The notes: a model not told the origin generated them from the sequence alone. Counted from the stretch's first letter, positions 4,393-24,327 are shown. The stretch: 64,000 nt of DNA from Escherichia coli (GCF_003334815.1 NZ_QOWO01000016.1); one strand, 5' to 3'. A program made the numbers and translations.

Positions 4393-4593
4393 ATGATCCT
4401 GAAACAAGATCTGAAATGGTCACCGGACGGTATGCGTGTTGAGGTCATTCGGGCCGGTGAGTATGACGACGGAGCGCTTCCTGCCCGGGTGCAGGAGATT
4501 GCACTTCAGGCCGGGTTAGCTGAGCGCGGAACCAGTGCAAAAAGCAGTAAAGCGGCAAAAGAGAAAAAAGCCACGACCAGTAAAGAGAGCTGA
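4393..4593 (+). CDS. hypothetical head-module protein (66 aa, Lys/Ser-rich C-terminal tail)
   Basis: ORF in the operon frame series between capsid and head-tail connector. I recognise no family. Confidence 0.5.
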   Translation: MILKQDLKWSPDGMRVEVIRAGEYDDGALPARVQEIALQAGLAERGTSAKSSKAAKEKKATTSKES

Positions 4594-4595
4594 GT

Positions 4596-4919
4596 ATGCT
4601 TCTGACAATGGAAGAGATTAAAGCCCAACTCCGGCTGGATGAGGATTTCGATGCTGATGACCGCCATCTGCAACTGCTGGCCTGTGCGGCGCAAAAGCGG
4701 ACGGAAACGTATCTGAACCGGAAGCTCTATGCACCGGATGAATCCATTCCGGACAGCGATCCGGACGGACTGCACCTGCCGGATGATATTCGTCTGGGGA
4801 TGCTGATGCTTATCAGCCATTTTTACGAAAACCGCTCGTCGGTTACGGAAGTGGAGAAACTCGACATGCCGCAGAGTTTTGGCTGGCTTGTCGGCCCGTA
4901 CAGGTACTTTCCGCAATGA
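4596..4919 (+). CDS. head-tail connector protein (gp6-like, Phage_connect_1-type)
   Basis: 107 aa. The N-terminus MEEIKAQLRLDEDFDADDRHLQLLACAAQKRTETYLNRKL fits the QLRID..D..L...I.AA..E.Y pattern of this family. Stop overlaps the next start. Confidence 0.72.
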   Translation: MLLTMEEIKAQLRLDEDFDADDRHLQLLACAAQKRTETYLNRKLYAPDESIPDSDPDGLHLPDDIRLGMLMLISHFYENRSSVTEVEKLDMPQSFGWLVGPYRYFPQ

Positions 4920-5326
4920 AAATTCGTCAGGCGCAGACCAGCGCAACCTACATTCTGCCGGACCCCGGTGAACTGAATAAACGCGTCCTGATCCGCCTGC
5001 GGGTGGATATGCCCGCGGATAACTTTGGCGTGGAGCCTCAATACCCGGTTACGTTCCGGACATGGGCGAAGGTTATCCAGACCAGTGCCACCACCTGGCA
5101 GGAAACCGCGCAGACAGGGGACGCCATCACCCATTACATCACCATTCGTTATCGCCGGGGGATCACCGCTGATTATGAGGTGGTCTGCGGTGACAGTGTG
5201 TACCGGGTGAAACGTCAGCGCGATCTGAACGGGGCGCGGCGCTTTCTGCTGCTGGAGTGTACGGAGCTGGGCGAATTTACGCAGAGTCACGGAGGCAGCA
5301 ATGGCGACTCCCTTTTTTCACGTTGA
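4916..5326 (+). CDS. head closure / head-tail adaptor protein
   Basis: 136-aa ORF with ATGA overlap to the upstream gene. Position and size fit SPP1 gp16/HK97 gp9-like head-tail joining proteins. Confidence 0.6.
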   Translation: MKIRQAQTSATYILPDPGELNKRVLIRLRVDMPADNFGVEPQYPVTFRTWAKVIQTSATTWQETAQTGDAITHYITIRYRRGITADYEVVCGDSVYRVKRQRDLNGARRFLLLECTELGEFTQSHGGSNGDSLFSR

Positions 5327-5798
5327 TGTTCAGCAGCCCGCGGAGATGCGCTTTAACCGCGCCCGTGTCCGGCGGGCGTTTGTCACGATTGGGCAGCGTC
5401 ATATGCGTGATGCCCGTCGGCTGGTGATGCGCCGTGCGCGGTCGGCACCAGGTGAAAACCCCGGTTATCAGACTGGACGCCTGGCTCGTTCGATTGGTTA
5501 CATGGTGCCGGGAGCCAGTAAAAAGCGAGCCGGTTTTATGACACGCATTGCCCCTAACCAGCGCAACGGGAGGGGGAACCGGATGATCTCTGGTGACTTC
5601 TATCCGGCGTTTCTGTTTTTTGGTGTCCGGGGAGGAGCAAAACGTCGTCGCAGTCATCATCGTGGTGCATCCGGTGGCAGCGGCTGGCGACTGGCTCCAC
5701 GTAATAACTTCATGGTGGAAACGCTTGAAAAGAACCGCAGCTGGACACGCTATTTTCTGGCGCGGGAATTGCGTAAATCACTGAAGCCGGAGCGATGA
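5301..5798 (+). CDS. HK97 gp10-like neck/tail-attachment protein
   Basis: 165-aa Arg-rich ORF. The ...NPGYQTGRLARSIGY... motif resembles the HK97 gp10 family TG.L..SI motif. Position is after the head closure gene. Confidence 0.5.
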   Translation: MATPFFHVDVQQPAEMRFNRARVRRAFVTIGQRHMRDARRLVMRRARSAPGENPGYQTGRLARSIGYMVPGASKKRAGFMTRIAPNQRNGRGNRMISGDFYPAFLFFGVRGGAKRRRSHHRGASGGSGWRLAPRNNFMVETLEKNRSWTRYFLARELRKSLKPER

Positions 5799-17389: not shown

Positions 17390-17882
17390 TATGCAGCCCT
17401 CACGATATAGTTAAATGCAATATTTCGTGGACGGGTTTCACTCCCGCCAGTATTACCGATACTCCCTCGTGAATGAAGTGTCGGTGATGGGATCAGACTC
17501 CCTCCTGTATTTGTGGCATCAAGTCCCCGTCCTTGTGTGTATGTCTTTTTGAAAATCGTAGCCAGTTCCCATTCATCTTTTGTGTCGTAACCATCATTGG
17601 CAACAACAATATGGCGGTGTTTTTCCAGCATCCCTGTCTGAATGCTCAATAAAACACGTCCTGCATCAATACCGCGCCCGTCATCCCAGCCACGAATAAA
17701 CTCACCACGTAAATCAGGCAATTTATTTGTCGGATAAGCCTTTGCCAGTTCCGGGTATTCTTCAGCAGAAAAAGCCGCACCGTTGCATTTCAGCCAGCCT
17801 GTTGGCGGTGTGGCTGAAGGCCATGGAACAGGCACACCAACAGGTAATGCAGAGCCTTCTCCCAAACCAACGTTTATGAAAA
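17389..17882 (-). CDS. stfE: promoterless alternative tail-fibre C-terminal cassette (StfE-like, collar-type receptor-binding domain)
   Basis: The open frame enters from the right crossover site (...GLGE|GSALPVGVPVPWPSATPPTGWLKCNGAAFSAEEYPELAKAY...PDLRGEFIRGWDDGRGID...ETRPRNIAFNYIVRAA). The MMPFARYF... start in the track lies outside the segment and is not a real N-terminus. Confidence 0.78.
17857..17882. promoter_or_regulatory. right crossover site for the Pin-family invertase
   Basis: TTCTCCCAAACC-AA-CGTTTATGAAAA: two imperfect 12-bp half-sites around a central AA, matching the architecture of Din-family sites. Confidence 0.7.
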
Positions 17883-17936
17883 TGCAGAAATAACGAGCAA
17901 ATGGCATCATTCCTGCTTTTGTCAGGGAGATCTACT

Positions 17937-18491
17937 ATGCTTATTGGCTATGTACGTGTGTCAACAAATGACCAGAACACAGATCTACAACGTAATGCGC
18001 TGAACTGTGCAGGATGCGAGCTGATTTTTGAAGACAAGATAAGCGGTACAAAGTCCGAAAGGCCGGGACTGAAAAAACTGCTCAGGACATTATCGGCAGG
18101 TGACACTCTGGTTGTCTGGAAGCTGGATCGGCTGGGGCGTAGTATGCGGCATCTGGTCATTCTGGTTGAGGAGTTGCGCGAACGTGGCGTTAATTTTCGC
18201 AGCCTGACGGATGCTATTGATACCAGCACACCGATGGGGCGTTTTTTCTTTCATGTGATGGGTGCCCTGGCTGAAATGGAACGAGAACTGATTGTTGAAC
18301 GAACAAAAGCTGGACTGGAAGCTGCTCGCGCACAGGGACGAATTGGGGGACGTCGTCCCAAACTTACACCAGAACAATGGGCGCAGGCCGGGCGATTAAT
18401 TGCATCAGGCGTTCCTCGCCAGAAGGTGGCGATCATCTATGATGTTGGTGTATCGACACTGTATAAGAAGTTTCCGGTCGGAGATAAATGA
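17937..18491 (+). CDS. pin: serine DNA invertase (Pin/Gin/Cin/Hin family)
   Basis: MLIGYVRVSTNDQNTDLQRNAL... contains the catalytic Ser motif, with a C-terminal HTH. Near-identical to e14 PinE as I recall. I prefer ATG 17937 (GGGAGA SD) over the 17901 start in the track. Confidence 0.93.
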   Translation: MLIGYVRVSTNDQNTDLQRNALNCAGCELIFEDKISGTKSERPGLKKLLRTLSAGDTLVVWKLDRLGRSMRHLVILVEELRERGVNFRSLTDAIDTSTPMGRFFFHVMGALAEMERELIVERTKAGLEAARAQGRIGGRRPKLTPEQWAQAGRLIASGVPRQKVAIIYDVGVSTLYKKFPVGDK

Positions 18492-18590
18492 AACCGCAGG
18501 CTCGTCGTATGCAAGAAAGTGCTGCGGCTGGCTGGTTAACTTCCGATAGTGAGAGTATTGAATGATTTCCAGTCGTTATCGATTTTACGT
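18489..18590. repeat. 102-bp direct repeat, copy R1 (abuts the pin stop codon)
   Basis: TGAAACCGCAGGCTCGTCGTATGCAAGAAAGTGCTGCGG...GATTTTACGT. About 95/102 identical to 21774-21875 by hand alignment. Confidence 0.85.
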
Positions 18591-18785
18591 ATTTTTTGCA
18601 TGAGATGATTTGAACGCCCTAGCACCAACCGTTCATGATTGCACGCCACTGTCTCTAGAACTGCTATGAGCATGAAGCCGCTGTTCAAACTAAGAATTTA
18701 TATGGCACTAACAGAAAAAATGTTACATATATGTTGAGCTTTAACGCAACATAGACATGTTCTATAGTTTGTGTCTCACCACCAG

Positions 18786-18814
18786 TTGAAAAAAAACGAA
18801 AATAGATTAACAAT
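18786..18814 (+). promoter_or_regulatory. candidate sigma70 promoter of the AT-rich cassette
   Basis: TTGAAA (18786-18791), 17-nt spacer, AACAAT (18809-18814), ~35 nt upstream of ATG 18850. In AT-rich DNA such matches arise easily. Confidence 0.3.
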
Positions 18815-18849
18815 GTTCAGAAGAAACCTTCATAATAGAAGAGGTATAA

Positions 18850-19104
18850 ATGGGTAAGATTATTCGGTGGATGCTTTTTTTTGTCGGATTATTTTCCGTT
18901 GCATATTCAATATATAAATATCAACAATCTCCGCAGAGTTTATTTTACATAATCGGTGCTATAGGAACACTTTTATCTGCTACATGTGGTTTACTTGAGA
19001 TAAAAAGCAAGAAATCGAATGGCAGTATAACTGCTGGCGACAACTCAAATATCGTTGTCATTAATGGTTCAGAAAACACATCAAAAATAAAAAATAGAGG
19101 GTGA
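18850..19104 (+). CDS. small two-TM membrane protein with polar GDNSN-motif tail (unknown function)
   Basis: 84-aa ORF with GAAGAGG SD 6 nt upstream. Hydrophobic helices at about residues 6-22 and 31-50. Very AT-rich codon usage. Its stop overlaps the next gene's start region. Confidence 0.65.
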   Translation: MGKIIRWMLFFVGLFSVAYSIYKYQQSPQSLFYIIGAIGTLLSATCGLLEIKSKKSNGSITAGDNSNIVVINGSENTSKIKNRG

Positions 19105-19106
19105 TT

Positions 19107-20042
19107 ATGTTTGATAAAGAGGTTAACTTAGGAGACAACTCAAACGTAGTAAAAACAGAAGGGAATAACAACACAACAATAATAAATAATTTTGATGAGA
19201 AGTTTATAGGTCACGTTGTAAGATCCATGCTTTATGAAAGTATGCCTTCCTTTCAAGAAGAAGCTAGAAAAAAGATAATTGCGTCAACTGATGAATACAT
19301 TAGAGAGCTAATATCTGAGTTAGTAATTCAAAAAACAGATGCAGATACATTAAACCAAAAACTATCAACGCCTGACGTTCAATACTCTCTTTTTGAATCA
19401 GCTAAATGTTTTGCAAAAAATCCAGAAAGAACAGCAAAATCAACTCTGTTAAATTTAGTTGTAAAAAAAATAAATGAATTGGATGGAGATCATGAAGAGC
19501 TTTCCTCTATCGATCTGGCAATAAACGTCGCTACAAAACTTAGCGTAAAGCAAATAAGGTATATATCTTTAATATACTATATTAAAGATATTGTAAAAAT
19601 ATCACAAGATAGTGCCGGCGCTTATTGCATAATAGATCCTTCAAAAGATACAACAGAAGAAGTTGACGATTTCTTTTTATTCCCAAATGATATAAAAAGG
19701 AACAAGCAGGATGTTTATGATCTTTATATCGATCTATATAACAATCAAATGGATGTTGTATTTAAAGATGAAGAGATTGGCCCAGTTGATTATAGTATGC
19801 TTATAGCATTGGGTTGTATCATTCAACCTGCATTCCCTCAGCGAACATTTGTACAAAATGTAAAGAAAAGAACAGGATTAGATTTAAACGACAGCGAACA
19901 AAAATTAAAGCTATCGACATTCATTGAGAAAATAGAAAAAGCTATAGAGATAGATTCTGTCGATTATATAGTATTAACTACGGTTGGTAGACAAATAGCT
20001 AACGCCTATATATCAACAAGAATGAGATTAGTTAACTTATAA
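19107..20042 (+). CDS. hypothetical soluble protein (~311 aa) with N-terminal GDNSN-motif; possible LPO_1073/Vpar_1526-like family (unverified recollection)
   Basis: Long ORF (track 19101..20042, GTG). I prefer ATG 19107 with AGAGGG SD 6 nt upstream. No TM segment. Followed by a strong terminator. Confidence 0.75.
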   Translation: MFDKEVNLGDNSNVVKTEGNNNTTIINNFDEKFIGHVVRSMLYESMPSFQEEARKKIIASTDEYIRELISELVIQKTDADTLNQKLSTPDVQYSLFESAKCFAKNPERTAKSTLLNLVVKKINELDGDHEELSSIDLAINVATKLSVKQIRYISLIYYIKDIVKISQDSAGAYCIIDPSKDTTEEVDDFFLFPNDIKRNKQDVYDLYIDLYNNQMDVVFKDEEIGPVDYSMLIALGCIIQPAFPQRTFVQNVKKRTGLDLNDSEQKLKLSTFIEKIEKAIEIDSVDYIVLTTVGRQIANAYISTRMRLVNL

Positions 20043-20063
20043 ATATCTCATATTTCTTCATCC

Positions 20064-20100
20064 AAGGTGGTGGCTTCATCATCCACCGCCTTCTTTTCTG
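20064..20100 (+). terminator. rho-independent terminator of the AT-rich cassette
   Basis: AAGGTGGTGG-cttcatcat-CCACCGCCTT (10-bp stem with one G-U pair) followed by CTTTTCTG, 22 nt after the stop codon. Confidence 0.6.
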
Positions 20101-20103
20101 CTC

Positions 20104-20250
20104 TTAAGAGTAGTGAACAAACCACTCGTCAGCAAACTCCCAAGTATCTTTCAGAGTCTCCTGAACAAAAGCCTTAGCAGAATCCTTATCTGCGGTGTAC
20201 GTAACAGGAAAATCATCGCTATGGTAGCTTTGACGCTCACCCCCATACCA
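20104..20250 (-). pseudogene. truncated DinI-like gene remnant (C-terminal ~45 codons, no start)
   Basis: Minus-strand translation is ...[37 protein letters not shown], which parallels the C-terminus of the intact gene at 21881-22129 (...[33 protein letters not shown]). There is no in-frame ATG, and an upstream in-frame stop lies at 20266-20268. Confidence 0.7.
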
Positions 20251-20401
20251 TAAAATATCAAGAGATTACGACTCATTTCCCCATGACTCTTCACCAACCA
20301 ACAGTTCTATCAACATAAGATGTAAACTCATAAACTAAGCAAGATAAAAAAATTAACAGAATTTTGTTGATTTCATGTCTGTGGAGTGTTAACTTAAAAT
20401 G

Positions 20402-20423
20402 AGACCTGAAGTACTGAAGGTCT
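20402..20423. promoter_or_regulatory. 22-bp imperfect dyad in the 5' leader of the XRE gene (candidate operator)
   Basis: AGACCTGAAGTACTGAAGGTCT has 18/22 positions dyad-symmetric around AGTACT. It lies 22 nt upstream of ATG 20446. Confidence 0.35.
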
Positions 20424-20445
20424 TTGACACACTGGAGAAGCAACT

Positions 20446-20805
20446 ATGTTAACGCCGTTTGGTAAGACAGTAAGAAAAATGCGCATAGACTTGGGGCTTA
20501 CGCTTAAAAGCATGGCTGAGGCTATGGGCATGACCTCGTCTTATCTTTCAGCGATCGAAACTGGTAAAAGGGCGGTCACTAAGCCCGTGCTTGATAGCAT
20601 CATTAGCTATTTTAATGCGGATGAAAAACAAAAAGAAAAGCTTATCAGTGCAGCTCGTGACTCTCAGCAGTCAGTAGAGATCAGCTTGTCAGGTAAGAAT
20701 GGCCACGCTCGTGAAGTCGCAATTGCGTTCGCTCGTAGTTTTGATGAATTAAATGAAGAAGACTTCCGTAATTTACGACAGATTTTGAATCGAAAACAGC
20801 AGTAG
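20446..20805 (+). CDS. XRE-family helix-turn-helix transcriptional regulator
   Basis: 119 aa. The N-terminus FGKTVRKMRIDLGLTLKSMAEAMGMTSSYLSAIETGKRAVT is a classic Cro/C1 HTH. GGAGAAG SD upstream. Confidence 0.85.
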   Translation: MLTPFGKTVRKMRIDLGLTLKSMAEAMGMTSSYLSAIETGKRAVTKPVLDSIISYFNADEKQKEKLISAARDSQQSVEISLSGKNGHAREVAIAFARSFDELNEEDFRNLRQILNRKQQ

Positions 20806-20813
20806 GAGGCGGC

Positions 20814-21335
20814 TTGAGCGGACAAGATTATCGTGTACCTCCGCAGAATCGTGAATCAATACGTTCTATCGTCACATCTCTGCGGAGCGCATTTGGTATT
20901 ACTGGGCTTAAATTCCCTGTAATGGAGGTAATTGAGTTCGCATTGCCTCAGTTGATCCCGGATTTTGAGTTCCACATTGGTGGCATGAAAGAAATGGGAG
21001 AAACGCATGGTCTTACGTACCCACAGGAACATTTATTGATTCTGCGCGAAGACATTTACGAAGGCGCTTTGAATGGGGTAGGGCGAGATAGGATGACTGC
21101 CGCGCATGAATTGGGTCATCTTCTTATGCACAGGAACATCGCATTTGCTCGTTCTGCCCCAGGGGTAAAAATCCGCCCTTTTGAGAGTAGTGAATGGCAA
21201 GCTAAATGTTTTAGTGGTGAGTTATTAGTGCCGGCTATGCATGTCAGTATTTTAAAAGGTATGACGGCTGAGGATGTTGCTAAGGCATGCGGAGTTTCAT
21301 TAGTGGCAGCGCGTTATCAGCTAGACAGAATGTAA
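20814..21335 (+). CDS. ImmA/IrrE-family zinc metallopeptidase (COG2856-type, HEXXH)
   Basis: 173 aa. Contains ...MTAAHELGHLLMH... (HEXXH) plus a downstream E (FSGELLVP). TTG start at 20814 with AGGAGG at 20804-20809, which overlaps the XRE stop and implies coupling. Confidence 0.82.
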   Translation: MSGQDYRVPPQNRESIRSIVTSLRSAFGITGLKFPVMEVIEFALPQLIPDFEFHIGGMKEMGETHGLTYPQEHLLILREDIYEGALNGVGRDRMTAAHELGHLLMHRNIAFARSAPGVKIRPFESSEWQAKCFSGELLVPAMHVSILKGMTAEDVAKACGVSLVAARYQLDRM

Positions 21336-21492
21336 AAACCCCTTGCTTGGCGCCAACCAGTGCAAGGGGCTTTAGGTGATGAATCCAAGAGGCATCACCA
21401 CCGTGAACAGCTTCGATAGACAGCCTGAAATTAACACCTTCAGGGAAGATGTTCAAGGGAAAAATCTCTCTTGGTAAGGAGGTGTTTTATGA

Positions 21493-21642
21493 ATGGGTTT
21501 GAAATCAATTGCTTCAAAAGCGGCGCCCAAAGGGTTCCGTTGGGTTTTCTGCCGTTACCGCAAGGTGCGTGGGAAATCAAAAAAAGTCCTTGATGCTCAT
21601 GATTACGGGTACGAGGCGTGGGCATTTTTAGTGCGCTGCTAA
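21493..21642 (+). CDS. untracked small basic protein (49 aa), unknown function
   Basis: My translation: MGLKSIASKAAPKGFRWVFCRYRKVRGKSKKVLDAHDYGYEAWAFLVRC* (12 K/R vs 3 D/E). AAGGAGG at 21476-21482. Stop is 13 nt before a strong terminator. An alternative ATG at 21489 gives a 34-aa ORF in another frame. Confidence 0.45.
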   Translation: MGLKSIASKAAPKGFRWVFCRYRKVRGKSKKVLDAHDYGYEAWAFLVRC

Positions 21643-21654
21643 GGGTTAGTATTT

Positions 21655-21678
21655 AAGGCACCTGCGGGTGCCTTTTTT
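21655..21678 (+). terminator. rho-independent terminator
   Basis: AAGGCACC-tgcg-GGTGCCTT followed by TTTTT. Confidence 0.72.
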
Positions 21679-21773
21679 GTATCCTCTGACCCGATTGGTG
21701 TCTTGCTGAGCCTGATAACTACCAATTTTTGTTATTACTATTCTACTATCGCTCAATCATGATTGGCGGGAGT

Positions 21774-21875
21774 TGAAACCGCAGGCACGTCGTATGCAAG
21801 AACGTGCTGCGGCTGGCTGGTGAACTTCCGATAGTGCGAGTATTGAATGATTTCCAGCCGTTACAGATTTTACGT
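21774..21875. repeat. 102-bp direct repeat, copy R2 (ends 5 nt before the DinI-like gene stop)
   Basis: TGAAACCGCAGGCACGTCGTATGCAAGAACGTGCTGCGG...GATTTTACGT. See R1. Confidence 0.85.
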
Positions 21876-21880
21876 GCTAA

Positions 21881-22129
21881 TTAGTGAACAAACCACTCGT
21901 CAGCAGACTCCCAGGTATCTTTCAGAGTTTCCTGAACAAAAGTTTTAGCTGAATCTTTATCGGCGGTGCGCGTAACAGAAAGGCCATCGTTGCTGGTGGC
22001 TTTTACGATCACCTCTACATCGTCATAACGCTTACTGATGCGTCGAGTTAATTCTTCCTTTAACGCATCCACAGCACCGTTTGGCATTTTAGTCATTTTC
22101 TCTTTAGCTATGCAGATCTCAATACGCAT
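21881..22129 (-). CDS. DinI-family DNA-damage-inducible protein (prophage-encoded)
   Basis: 82 aa, [11 protein letters not shown]...[16 protein letters not shown]. Same length class and C-terminal motif as E. coli DinI. Two LexA boxes lie immediately upstream. Confidence 0.88.
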
Positions 22130-22142
22130 AAAAATCCCTCTA

Positions 22143-22162
22143 CACTGTGTTTGTATACAGTG
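22143..22162. promoter_or_regulatory. LexA (SOS) box 1
   Basis: CACTGTGTTTGTATACAGTG fits CTGT-N8-ACAG. It lies 14 nt upstream of the DinI-like start codon. Confidence 0.72.
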
Positions 22163-22170
22163 TTATTTTT

Positions 22171-22190
22171 AACTGTATAAATAAACAGTG
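22171..22190. promoter_or_regulatory. LexA (SOS) box 2
   Basis: AACTGTATAAATAAACAGTG fits CTGT-N8-ACAG. It lies 8 nt from box 1. Confidence 0.72.
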
Positions 22191-22348
22191 TCAATGGAAC
22201 AAAGATTGCTGCATGTACAAATGTTCTTTGGCTACAAATACACCTACTGATCATGTTCTGCTATGCTCTGATACCTCCAAAATGTACAATCAGCGGCATG
22301 AATTTTTCTTTGTACATATGATTGTACATAATTAAAGAGACAACAATT

Positions 22349-23935
22349 ATGACAAGCCTTTTGGCCGCAGAGGTAGCGAAAAGAAGAACCTTTGCAATTA
22401 TTTCTCACCCGGACGCCGGTAAAACTACCATCACCGAGAAGGTGCTGCTGTTCGGACAGGCCATTCAGACCGCCGGTACAGTAAAAGGCCGTGGCTCTAA
22501 CCAGCACGCTAAGTCGGACTGGATGGAGATGGAAAAGCAGCGTGGGATCTCCATTACCACGTCTGTGATGCAGTTTCCGTATCACGACTGCCTGGTTAAC
22601 CTGCTCGACACCCCGGGGCACGAAGACTTCTCGGAAGATACCTATCGTACCCTGACGGCGGTGGACTGCTGCCTGATGGTTATCGACGCTGCAAAAGGTG
22701 TTGAAGATCGTACCCGCAAGCTGATGGAAGTTACCCGTCTGCGCGACACGCCGATCCTCACCTTTATGAACAAACTTGACCGTGATATCCGCGACCCGAT
22801 GGAGCTGCTCGATGAAGTTGAGAACGAGCTGAAAATCGGCTGTGCACCGATCACCTGGCCGATTGGCTGCGGCAAGCTGTTTAAAGGCGTTTACCACCTT
22901 TATAAAGATGAAACCTATCTCTATCAGAGCGGTAAAGGCCACACCATTCAGGAAGTCCGCATTGTTAAAGGGCTGAATAACCCGGATCTCGACGCTGCGG
23001 TTGGTGAAGATCTGGCGCAGCAGCTGCGTGATGAACTGGAGCTGGTGAAAGGCGCGTCTAACGAGTTCGACAAAGAATTGTTCCTTGCGGGCGAAATCAC
23101 TCCGGTATTCTTCGGTACTGCGCTGGGTAACTTCGGCGTTGATCATATGCTGGATGGCCTGGTGGAGTGGGCACCTGCGCCGATGCCGCGTCAGACTGAT
23201 ACCCGTACTGTAGAAGCGAGCGAAGACAAATTTACCGGCTTCGTATTTAAAATTCAGGCCAACATGGACCCGAAACACCGTGACCGCGTGGCGTTTATGC
23301 GCGTGGTATCCGGTAAATATGAAAAAGGCATGAAGCTGCGCCAGGTGCGCACTGCGAAAGATGTGGTGATCTCCGACGCGCTGACCTTTATGGCGGGCGA
23401 CCGTTCGCACGTTGAAGAAGCGTATCCGGGCGATATCCTCGGCCTGCATAACCACGGCACTATTCAGATCGGCGACACCTTTACCCAGGGTGAGATGATG
23501 AAGTTCACTGGTATTCCGAACTTCGCGCCGGAACTGTTCCGTCGTATCCGCCTGAAAGATCCGCTGAAGCAAAAACAGCTGCTCAAAGGGCTGGTACAGC
23601 TTTCCGAAGAGGGCGCGGTGCAGGTGTTCCGTCCGATCTCCAACAACGACCTGATCGTTGGTGCAGTTGGTGTGCTGCAGTTTGATGTGGTGGTATCGCG
23701 CCTGAAGAGCGAATACAACGTTGAAGCAGTGTATGAGTCAGTCAACGTTGCCACTGCCCGCTGGGTAGAATGTGCGGACGCGAAGAAATTCGAAGAGTTC
23801 AAGCGTAAGAACGAAAGCCAACTGGCGCTTGATGGCGGCGATAACCTCGCTTACATCGCTACCAGCATGGTAAACCTGCGCCTGGCGCAGGAACGTTATC
23901 CGGACGTTCAGTTCCACCAGACCCGCGAGCATTAA
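22349..23935 (+). CDS. prfC: peptide chain release factor 3 (RF3), with altered extreme N-terminus
   Basis: From residue ~9 onward ([20 protein letters not shown]...) it matches K-12 PrfC as I recall. I prefer ATG 22349 ([13 protein letters not shown]...), giving 528 aa. Confidence 0.93.
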
Positions 23936-23971: not shown

Positions 23972-24327
23972 TCAATTTCCCTTCCTTATTAGCCGCTTAC
24001 GGAATGTTCTTAAAACATTCACTTTTGCTTATGTTTTAGCTGATATCCCGAGCGGTTTCAAAATTGTGATCTATATTTAACAAAGTAATGACATTTCTGA
24101 CGGCGTTAAATACCGTTCAATGCGTAGATATCAGTATCTAAAGCCGTCGATTGTCATTCTACCGATATTAATAACTGATTCAGAGGCTGTAATGGTCGTT
24201 ATTCATCACCCATCGCTTTTGTGATGGCGGCCATTGACTTCTGTAGAGGGTGAAGTCTCTCCCTATTCAGCAATGCAACCTCGTGTTGCCAGGCTCAAAT
24301 TATGAGCAAACATACAGGAATAAATCG

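Follow-up and report, generated by a model that had tools for sequence, protein, structure and literature searches.

A probable accessory-gene slot at the prfC end of a lambdoid Escherichia coli prophage, with two stacked cassettes between a DNA invertase gene and a DinI-like gene

Introduction

The hotspots of P2 and P4 consist of conserved flanking genes around highly variable cargo that is enriched in anti-phage genes (PMC9122126; Vassallo et al. 2022, PMC9519451). A site of a comparable kind is described here in 64,000 nucleotides (nt) of Escherichia coli DNA (NZ_QOWO01000016.1, assembly GCF_003334815.1), the whole of which is called the window. Positions 18489–22129 of the window most probably form an accessory slot, of the type of morons and the lambda b region, at the tail-fibre end of an E. 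coli prophage of lambdoid organization beside the host gene prfC, and the probability of this reading is put at roughly 80%. The slot lies between the gene for a pin-type DNA invertase and an intact gene for a DinI-like protein (dinI). It holds two cassettes, cargo A and cargo B, which are framed by two direct repeats (R1 and R2) of a sequence called R and are separated by the truncated 3′ end of a second dinI allele.

Juhala et al. in 2000 and Hendrix et al. are credited with the moron concept. For prophages of enterohaemorrhagic E. coli, Tobe et al. in 2006 are reported to be the source of the term "exchangeable effector loci", which was not found in the literature searched. Pairs of an XRE repressor and an M78 metalloprotease that respond to DNA damage are known as CapH/CapP, the regulators of cyclic-oligonucleotide-based anti-phage signalling systems (CBASS), and as ImmR/ImmA. 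RmrA of RosmerTA is a related, fused form of such a pair.

The slot and its variable states

The first 22.2 kb of the window are the right part of a prophage. Its head and tail genes, baseplate J, YmfQ, an invertible tail-fibre segment and the pin-type invertase lie upstream of the slot, and downstream dinI is followed by host prfC; since prfC starts at 22349, the prophage ends here. This is the location of a lambdoid accessory hotspot. From left to right the slot and its borders read pin, R1, an operon for an 84-amino-acid (aa) and a 311/313-aa protein (cargo A), the dinI remnant, XRE, ImmA and a 49-aa open reading frame (ORF) (cargo B), R2 and dinI (Table 1), which is the order given in the preliminary description of this DNA. 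The stretch had also been called compositionally heterogeneous, and this is borne out. The GC content is 29–36% across 18550–20050 (cargo A), compared with 45–54% in the neighbouring phage genes, and 40–48% across 20350–21850 (cargo B). The cargo units have promoter-like sites and predicted terminators of their own, and can be regarded as self-contained and compositionally foreign.

The state of the slot in relatives was surveyed in 80 IMG/VR viral contigs whose DinI is ≥98% identical to this one, and in 87 loci overall. R lies 5 nt 3′ of the dinI stop codon in 78 of the 80 viral loci. About 45 of the 87 loci are empty and consist of tfa or pin, one R and dinI, with a gap of 106–191 nt; tfa, R, dinI is the commonest state of the slot. 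Cargo-free pin, R, dinI junctions with a single R occur in three loci (L003, L035 and L055), where pin and dinI are 106 nt apart. In L003, where int and dusA follow dinI, the pin and dinI stop codons are 103 nt apart. An ancestral pin–R–dinI junction had been proposed, together with a check that R be present once where cargo is absent, and these loci agree with both. The 1.5 kb to the left of dinI fall into 42 sequence clusters among the 87 loci. L001 carries pin, R, cargo A, dinI and prfC, and L002 carries a DRT reverse transcriptase with SLATT (disrupted by IS1), the dinI remnant, XRE–ImmA, R, dinI and prfC. Other arrangements are pin, DUF4145, R and dinI (L004), a truncated pin, an S24 remnant, an SDH Clp-fold protease, R and dinI (L005), and R, the dinI remnant, XRE–ImmA–49-aa ORF, a further R and other genes (L006). 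The whole 4.5-kb arrangement was found in none of 5,426 complete E. coli genomes at ≥80% coverage; its parts are widespread.

A PADLOC search of the slot cargo in related loci identified PD-T4-3 (a GIY-YIG protein, 2.4e-140), RT_UG17 (DRT-UG17) with RTasSLATT, a PD-T7-1-like protein (2.8e-69) and AbiTii (4e-37). Seen through these relatives, known and validated defence systems recur at the locus in the sense of the P2/P4 hotspots. Among the other cargo of the slot are NleG effectors, an IpaH-like LRR-NEL E3 ligase, an Acyl_transf_3 protein and a reverse transcriptase accompanied by SLATT_5. Defence genes share the slot with virulence effectors and with genes for surface modification, and it is therefore a general lambdoid accessory region. 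The cargo diversity and the PADLOC matches are what the preliminary description had proposed to tabulate. Its picture of a prophage-end hotspot for defence genes stands as far as the recurrence of defence systems is concerned, but not as a defence-only site, as effectors and an acyltransferase are also present.

Duplicated R copies flank cargo in lambda and in four of the related loci (L006, L066, L113 and L115). In L113, L115 (about 4540–5700), L108 and L110, PD-T4-3 often lies between a partial copy of the R hairpin after pin and the full R. In those loci the full R is followed by a dinI remnant and the XRE–ImmA unit, so that up to three cassettes are stacked in a row.

The stacked cassettes

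The two parts of the slot match different relatives. By BLAST, the identity to L001 is 100% for pin (pinE in L001), 100% for R1 and 99.9% for cargo A. The dinI remnant, cargo B, R2, dinI and the dinI–prfC spacer are 99.3–100% identical to L002, with 99.3% for the remnant and 100% for intact dinI; the spacer is only 93.6% identical to that of L001. Base by base, the window equals L001 at all 82 positions of 20053–20134 and first differs at 20135, and it equals the L002 remnant at every position from 20114 on and differs at 20113. Judged from this comparison the window is a chimera, and the match to L001 as far as 20134 together with the match to L002 from 20114 places the crossover inside a stretch of 21 identical nt at the 3′ end of dinI. 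The stack recurs in two other assemblies, once at prfC (99.0% over 9 kb) and once at another chromosomal site (95% over 5.1 kb). It is not an assembly artefact, because the same arrangement is present in these two further assemblies.

The crossover block is part of the dinI remnant, which had been described beforehand as a truncated dinI 3′ end between the cargo units. A repeat search confirms this by aligning 20111–20218 with 21882–21989 of the intact gene (108 nt, 87%), and BLAST stretches the homology to 20111–20241. The remnant is 95% identical to the one in L006. It lies to the left of cargo B in every locus checked, and a homologous dinI stretch is found directly left of XRE in five further cassette-carrying loci; the right-hand neighbours vary.

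The following series of events is proposed. A cargo-B unit, consisting of the dinI 3′ remnant, XRE–ImmA–49-aa ORF and R, would have existed beforehand elsewhere. A cargo-A prophage of L001 type (pin, R, cargo A, dinI) would then have met a cargo-B prophage of L002 type at the same site; both presumed parents sit at prfC. The exchange partners would have been the dinI of the L001-type phage and the dinI remnant of the L002-type prophage. Tandem lysogeny followed by deletion is a plausible route, as is a cross between an infecting phage and a resident prophage. It has been shown that phage Rad52-like recombinases efficiently recombine short homologies of about 12% divergence between lambda and defective prophages (PMC3945230). 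More generally, self-contained cassettes with their own promoter and terminator may be swapped among phages, resident prophages and P4-like satellites by homologous recombination through short conserved flanks, which would be pin or tfa on the left and R with the SOS-controlled dinI on the right. This recombination pathway is what we infer; what the sequences themselves establish are the repeats, the occurrence of empty and variable states, where the crossover lies, and how R is distributed and structurally conserved. The preliminary description had the units stacked by homologous recombination through both R and dinI. The dinI part of that proposal is matched by the 21-nt block, but R was not used in the event mapped here.

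The right border of the slot appears to be SOS-regulated. Two LexA-box-like palindromes (CTGT-N8-ACAG) at 22143–22162 and 22171–22190 overlap the predicted dinI promoter, which makes double LexA control of the prophage dinI probable. In the phi80 record, annotated LexA sites adjoin its dinL gene.

A perfect Chi site (GCTGGTGG) is located at 21992–21999 within intact dinI, and the dinI remnant is without Chi. The window has 12 Chi sites, all on the plus strand, so that RecBCD coming from the prfC side would be activated just to the right of the slot. Chi-driven recombination was considered and dropped, as the sites are all on the same strand and their density is ordinary; no special claim is made for them.

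R is a widespread non-coding module

R1 and R2 had been noted as 102-bp repeats with about seven mismatches, the second ending 5 nt from the dinI stop. Both statements hold. A repeat search of the window gives 102 nt, 93% identity and 7 mismatches, and R2 ends at 21875, with a 5-nt spacer before the dinI stop codon at 21881–21883. The first letter of R1 is the T in the TGA that ends pin (18489–18491). A 31-nt core of R has only two sites in the 64-kb window, R1 and R2, where shuffles expect 0. Read on the minus strand, R2 flanks dinI on the 3′ side and closes with a hairpin, after which comes UUUCA. R1 with the next 48 nt (18494–18638) is 84% identical to lambda 24162–24306, and in flanks aligned by eye the similarity of the R1 side to the lambda b region appears to persist to about 18675.

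R is a sharply bounded non-coding module of about 100 nt that is common to lambdoid coliphages, and not a private scar of this junction. Copies were found at 19,053 places in 5,409 of the 5,426 E. coli genomes (median 3 per genome) and in 211 phage records, including those of HK97, lambda and Shiga toxin phages. In phi80, which was found through a peptide search, R lies between the tail-fibre gene and dinL. Of 185,579 species-representative genomes, only those of Escherichia and Shigella had an exact 27-nt core of R. In HK97, R has tfa on one side and, on the other, attP and the annotated sib site, which it abuts. In lambda, R occupies 24162–24256 in the b region and a partial copy of its hairpin comes immediately behind tfa, which places ea47 between R sequences. 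Across species, dinI follows R in only 4 of 10 genomic copies sampled. At least 8 different sequences adjoin the left end of R and at least 6 the right end, the borders are sharp, and a core of about 60 nt is nearly invariant across copies with unrelated neighbours. The left ends of the copies vary and begin at positions 1, 2, 3, 6, 11, 34 and 38. The proposal that R is the junction sequence of the slot stands in one respect, the single R at empty junctions, and is refined in another, as R is not specific to this junction.

The preliminary description had allowed that R might be part of a conserved functional gene, which would have removed its status as a junction sequence. The coding tests were negative. 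A coding gene or remnant was considered for R, which PGAP (the Prokaryotic Genome Annotation Pipeline) sometimes calls a "capsid protein" pseudogene, and was ruled out by the lack of codon periodicity and by stops in several copies. Variable columns are distributed 13:11:11 over the codon positions, and synonymous and non-synonymous changes number 14:26 in that frame versus 12:23 in the next. An ORF over R is open in many copies and has stop codons in R1, in L055 and in K-12. No long coding sequence over R is annotated in any phage record checked.

In K-12, an unannotated fossil of a prophage end is found between ykgJ and ecpE (L009:3001–3300, about 304.2–304.5 kb of NC_000913), where an R copy of 88.7% identity runs into a decayed dinI 3′ end. 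The fossil is present in nearly every E. coli genome, and some lineages have a tail-fibre-assembly remnant there that is called by PGAP.

What R may do

R probably acts as the leftward intrinsic terminator and 3′ untranslated region (UTR) for dinI and for further morons transcribed leftward, and at the same time offers portable homology. Its end on the dinI strand is formed by a hairpin of 11 pairs, three of which show compensatory double changes. The double-change cells number 6 versus 1.7 ± 1.2 in shuffles, and 0 of 500 shuffles were as high. After the hairpin, the minus strand has a run of U in most copies, with five U in the commonest, tfa-adjacent copies and UUUCA in R1 and R2.

Several points weigh against this account of R and against the exchange proposed above. 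The R hairpin was not called by a simple terminator scan, in which its loop of 9–11 nt exceeds the limit of the scanner, and only UUUCA follows it at R2. R1 stands upstream of a rightward cassette and so cannot terminate that cassette there. The putative parents of the exchange are deduced from present-day relatives. The mapped event used dinI, and the case for R as a recombination substrate is circumstantial, coming from duplicated R copies that flank cargo at several loci. The borders of R are also sharper than plain homology-driven exchange predicts, which hints at selection on R itself.

It is possible, though not likely, that R is primarily a selected functional RNA element and that its use as recombination homology is incidental. 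R would then be a retroregulatory or processing site like sib, or a small RNA (sRNA) derived from the 3′UTR of the SOS-induced dinI transcript. The near-invariant core amid unrelated neighbours, the sharp borders on both sides, the compensatory changes in the hairpin, the contact with the annotated sib site in HK97 and the fixed 5-nt distance to dinI in 78 of 80 loci all agree with such a role, and there is a weak match between the initial 40 nt of R and the 3′ hairpin of CssrB, a Shigella sRNA family. However, R has no Rfam family at threshold, CssrB reaching 23 bits against a gathering score of 76, and single-sequence folding of R on both strands is no better than that of shuffles (z +0.3 to −1.8). 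Helices 1 and 2 of R are invariant and hence give no covariation evidence. The identity of R copies, about 87–97%, is not above that of the neighbouring dinI coding sequence (94–100%), and the prophage sRNAs in the papers checked (Pas, HnrS and svsR) map to other loci.

An Rfam scan of 17800–22500 gave only sub-threshold matches, to the CssrB 3′ hairpin and to the STnc130 terminator. The CssrB match is at 21748–21811 on the plus strand and covers the R hairpin; the STnc130 match is at 21646–21758 on the minus strand, with 30 bits against a gathering score of 55. The first of these similarities suggests that Shigella CssrB may be a transcript that ends at an R copy.

A bolder proposal joins two ideas. 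R would be a dedicated module under selection, either a sib-like retroregulatory or 3′UTR RNA tied to SOS-induced dinI or a recognition site for cassette exchange, and, separately, cargo A would be a new anti-phage system common to P4-like satellites and lambdoid prophages. Selection on R would explain why its 60-nt core is nearly invariant and why its borders stay sharp with at least 6 different neighbours on the right and at least 8 on the left. The combination is doubtful, and somewhat more so than an RNA role for R taken by itself.

It is very improbable that R is an att-type site for site-specific recombination and that the 3.3-kb segment between R1 and R2 was integrated by an integrase acting on R. 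This idea owes something to the GenBank record of HK633, in which an R copy (20680–20760) is labelled attP and likened to the non-coding region between ykgJ and yagV of MG1655, and K-12 does have an R copy between ykgJ and ecpE. Direct repeats around a segment also resemble attL and attR, and the borders of R are sharp. Yet there is no integrase between R1 and R2, and the two copies are 7% diverged and of different types, one with the lambda-type extension and the other with dinI after R. The attP cores of HK97 and lambda have been mapped elsewhere, 187 nt and 3.5 kb from R, respectively. ykgJ–ecpE is uninterrupted in 4,951 of the 5,426 genomes, with no split locus in the sampled rows, and the K-12 copy there runs into decayed dinI, as a prophage fossil would, and is no clean attB. 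The varying left ends of R copies also argue against a fixed site. The attP/attB reading suggested by the HK633 label was rejected on the intact ykgJ–ecpE locus, the attP cores mapped elsewhere and the lack of a cognate integrase in the segment.

Least credible of all is a local tandem duplication of an R–dinI unit within the prophage with later divergence and insertion of cargo, which the order R, dinI 3′ end, R, dinI resembles superficially, since each half is 99–100% identical to a different present-day relative, the divergence between the halves is 7% for R and about 15% for dinI, cargo B with its dinI remnant is found alone in many unrelated contexts, and R1 has a lambda-type extension that R2 lacks.

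The cassettes and their genes

Table 1. Features of the slot and its borders, in window coordinates
Feature	Position	Strand	Evidence or remark
pin-type serine DNA invertase, left conserved anchor	17937–18491	+	Pfam Resolvase 8.7e-52 and HTH_7
R1, lambda-type copy of the R module	18489–18590		102 nt, 93% to R2
Cargo A cassette	18674–20108	+	89.5% over 1438 nt to P4-like satellite cassette
Cargo A promoter-like sites	18807–18836	+	sequence-predicted
Gene for 84-aa protein, two predicted membrane (hydrophobic) segments	18850–19104	+	read from sequence
Gene for 311-aa protein, Vpar_1526/LPO_1073 family	19107–20042	+	NCBIfam NF045477 3.3e-24
Cargo A terminator hairpin	20064–20092	+	sequence-predicted
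Truncated 3′ end of second, divergent dinI allele; left end of cargo B unit	20104–20250	-	84.8% to intact dinI over 132 nt
Crossover interval, TGAACAAACCACTCGTCAGCA	20114–20134		L001/L002 identity switch, 21 nt, dinI 3′ end
Cargo B cassette	20251–21773	+	99.8% in L002, 98.9% in L006
XRE-family repressor	20446–20805	+	Pfam HTH_31 9.1e-11 / HTH_3; PADLOC capH 3.6e-10
ImmA/IrrE M78 metalloprotease	20814–21335	+	Peptidase_M78 5.1e-09; PADLOC capP 4.9e-11; motif HELGH
49-aa basic ORF	21493–21642	+	phrog_33859 1.5e-26
Strong intrinsic terminator of cargo B	21655–21674	+	terminator scan, predicted
R2, dinI-type copy of the R module	21774–21875		repeat search; R 5 nt after dinI stop in 78/80 IMG/VR loci
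Intact DinI-like gene, 82 aa, right conserved anchor	21881–22129	-	Pfam DinI 1.2e-19; phrog_189 4.4e-31
Predicted dinI promoter, TTGACA-18-AAAAAT	22143–22194	-	TTGACA at 22194–22189

The Vpar_1526/LPO_1073 family, to which the 311-aa protein of cargo A belongs, is rare (17 database clusters). Neither cargo A protein had a PADLOC or a Pfam match. The AlphaFold model of the 311-aa protein has a pLDDT (predicted local distance difference test) of 82 and no informative neighbour among solved structures, and a literature search for LPO_1073/Vpar_1526 gave nothing useful. The counterpart of cargo A in P4-like satellites directly follows the Pox_D5 primase gene, and these satellites also encode Psu and Ogr/Delta. 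The cassette moves, as far as its sequence tells, between satellite and lambdoid-prophage slots, because an 89.5% identical copy stands after the satellite primase. The post-primase position in P4-like satellites reportedly corresponds to the P4 defence hotspot of Rousset et al. 2022. Because cargo A also occupies this post-primase slot, it is a reasonable candidate for anti-phage defence by analogy.

Atlantibacter and Citrobacter have P4-like satellites with this copy of cargo A (L092:5566–7003), which has the primase gene directly before it and the RhuM, HicB and SymE genes after it. The two cargo A proteins have a short Asn-rich motif, GDNSN(I/V)V, in common. It is found at the C-terminus of the 84-aa protein (ITAGDNSNIVVINGSENTS, window 19036–19049) and at the N-terminus of the 311-aa protein (VNLGDNSNVVKTEGNNNTT, window 19131–19144), whose first 27 residues are disordered in the AlphaFold model. 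The motif may serve for interaction or strand exchange.

Cargo B has an XRE helix-turn-helix gene followed by an M78 (HEXXH) gene, as in CapH/CapP and ImmR/ImmA. PADLOC found only regulator-type matches in it (capH, capP and many RmrA), with scores at the level of domains. In other genomes the neighbours of the cassette are varied defence-like genes. The likeliest function of the cassette is that of a regulatory pair responding to damage, which would here control at most the 49-aa ORF. The region 21489–21642 has two overlapping starts after AAGGAGG, with ATG 21489 opening a 34-aa frame and ATG 21493 the 49-aa frame. The 49-aa frame is the one with the phrog_33859 match, and it is annotated by PGAP in relatives.

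Significance and comparison with known systems

The slot is a known kind of hotspot, and the window is a well-resolved example of it in about 3.6 kb of a prophage end. Because the general principle is already established, the value of the locus is that of a resource and a mechanistic illustration and not of a new concept. What is added here is R as an abundant discrete module, the fixed R–dinI unit, the 21-nt crossover interval and the link between cargo A and P4-like satellites. The locus illustrates at base resolution how temperate phages may gather accessory and defence genes by means of short conserved flanks, here the dinI 3′ end and a 100-nt non-coding module, through which phages, prophage remnants and satellites would exchange and stack cassettes. 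R is a very abundant element without an Rfam family at threshold, and no description of it as a module was found in the literature searched, although a search of this kind cannot prove absence. pin or tfa, R and dinI can be used as anchors to mine cargo from thousands of E. coli prophages. The two cassettes are directly testable candidates, one being the two-segment membrane protein with the Vpar_1526-family protein and the other XRE–ImmA with the 49-aa ORF.

The prophage e14 of K-12 (L118:2186–3680) had been named as carrying mcrA in the equivalent slot, alongside Mu, where mom follows the invertase gene gin. Like the window, e14 has an accessory gene after the invertase at the prophage end, and its pinE is 92% identical to the window pin. 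Unlike in the window, homology stops at the pin stop codon and mcrA comes directly next, with no R between pinE and mcrA and no dinI. From this comparison e14 is a different state of the slot, and as a model for it e14 was dropped.

Cargo B resembles CapH/CapP and ImmR/ImmA in having an XRE helix-turn-helix protein followed by a Peptidase_M78/ImmA protein. It differs from them in that the window has neither a CBASS operon nor any other known effector operon next to the pair, the 49-aa basic ORF being all that lies downstream.

The lambda b region and the morons are located in the same place as the slot, from the tail-fibre, tfa or invertase genes to the attachment-site end, and their content is likewise non-essential, compositionally foreign and organized as self-contained units of promoter, gene and terminator. 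The R copy and the partial R hairpin of lambda frame ea47 in the same way as R frames cargo here. What sets the slot apart from these systems is that the crossover by which its two cassettes were stacked can be narrowed down to 21 nt. It also differs from HK97, in which the right border is formed by sib and attP and not by an SOS-regulated dinI-like gene with R 5 nt past its stop codon. Effector loci also belong to this long-known accessory region, and NleG and IpaH-type effectors are found in the slot in related loci.

Compared with the P2 and P4 hotspots, the slot belongs to a lambdoid gene order with a Mu/e14-like baseplate and an invertible tail fibre, and its flanks are pin or tfa, R and dinI. 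Unlike those defence sites, it also holds virulence effectors and an O-antigen-type acyltransferase. As in P2 and P4, conserved flanks surround variable cargo that includes PD-T4-3, DRT-UG17, PD-T7-1-like and AbiTii genes, and cargo A follows the primase gene in P4-like satellites at 89.5% DNA identity. In functional terms the slot is a counterpart of those of P2 and P4.

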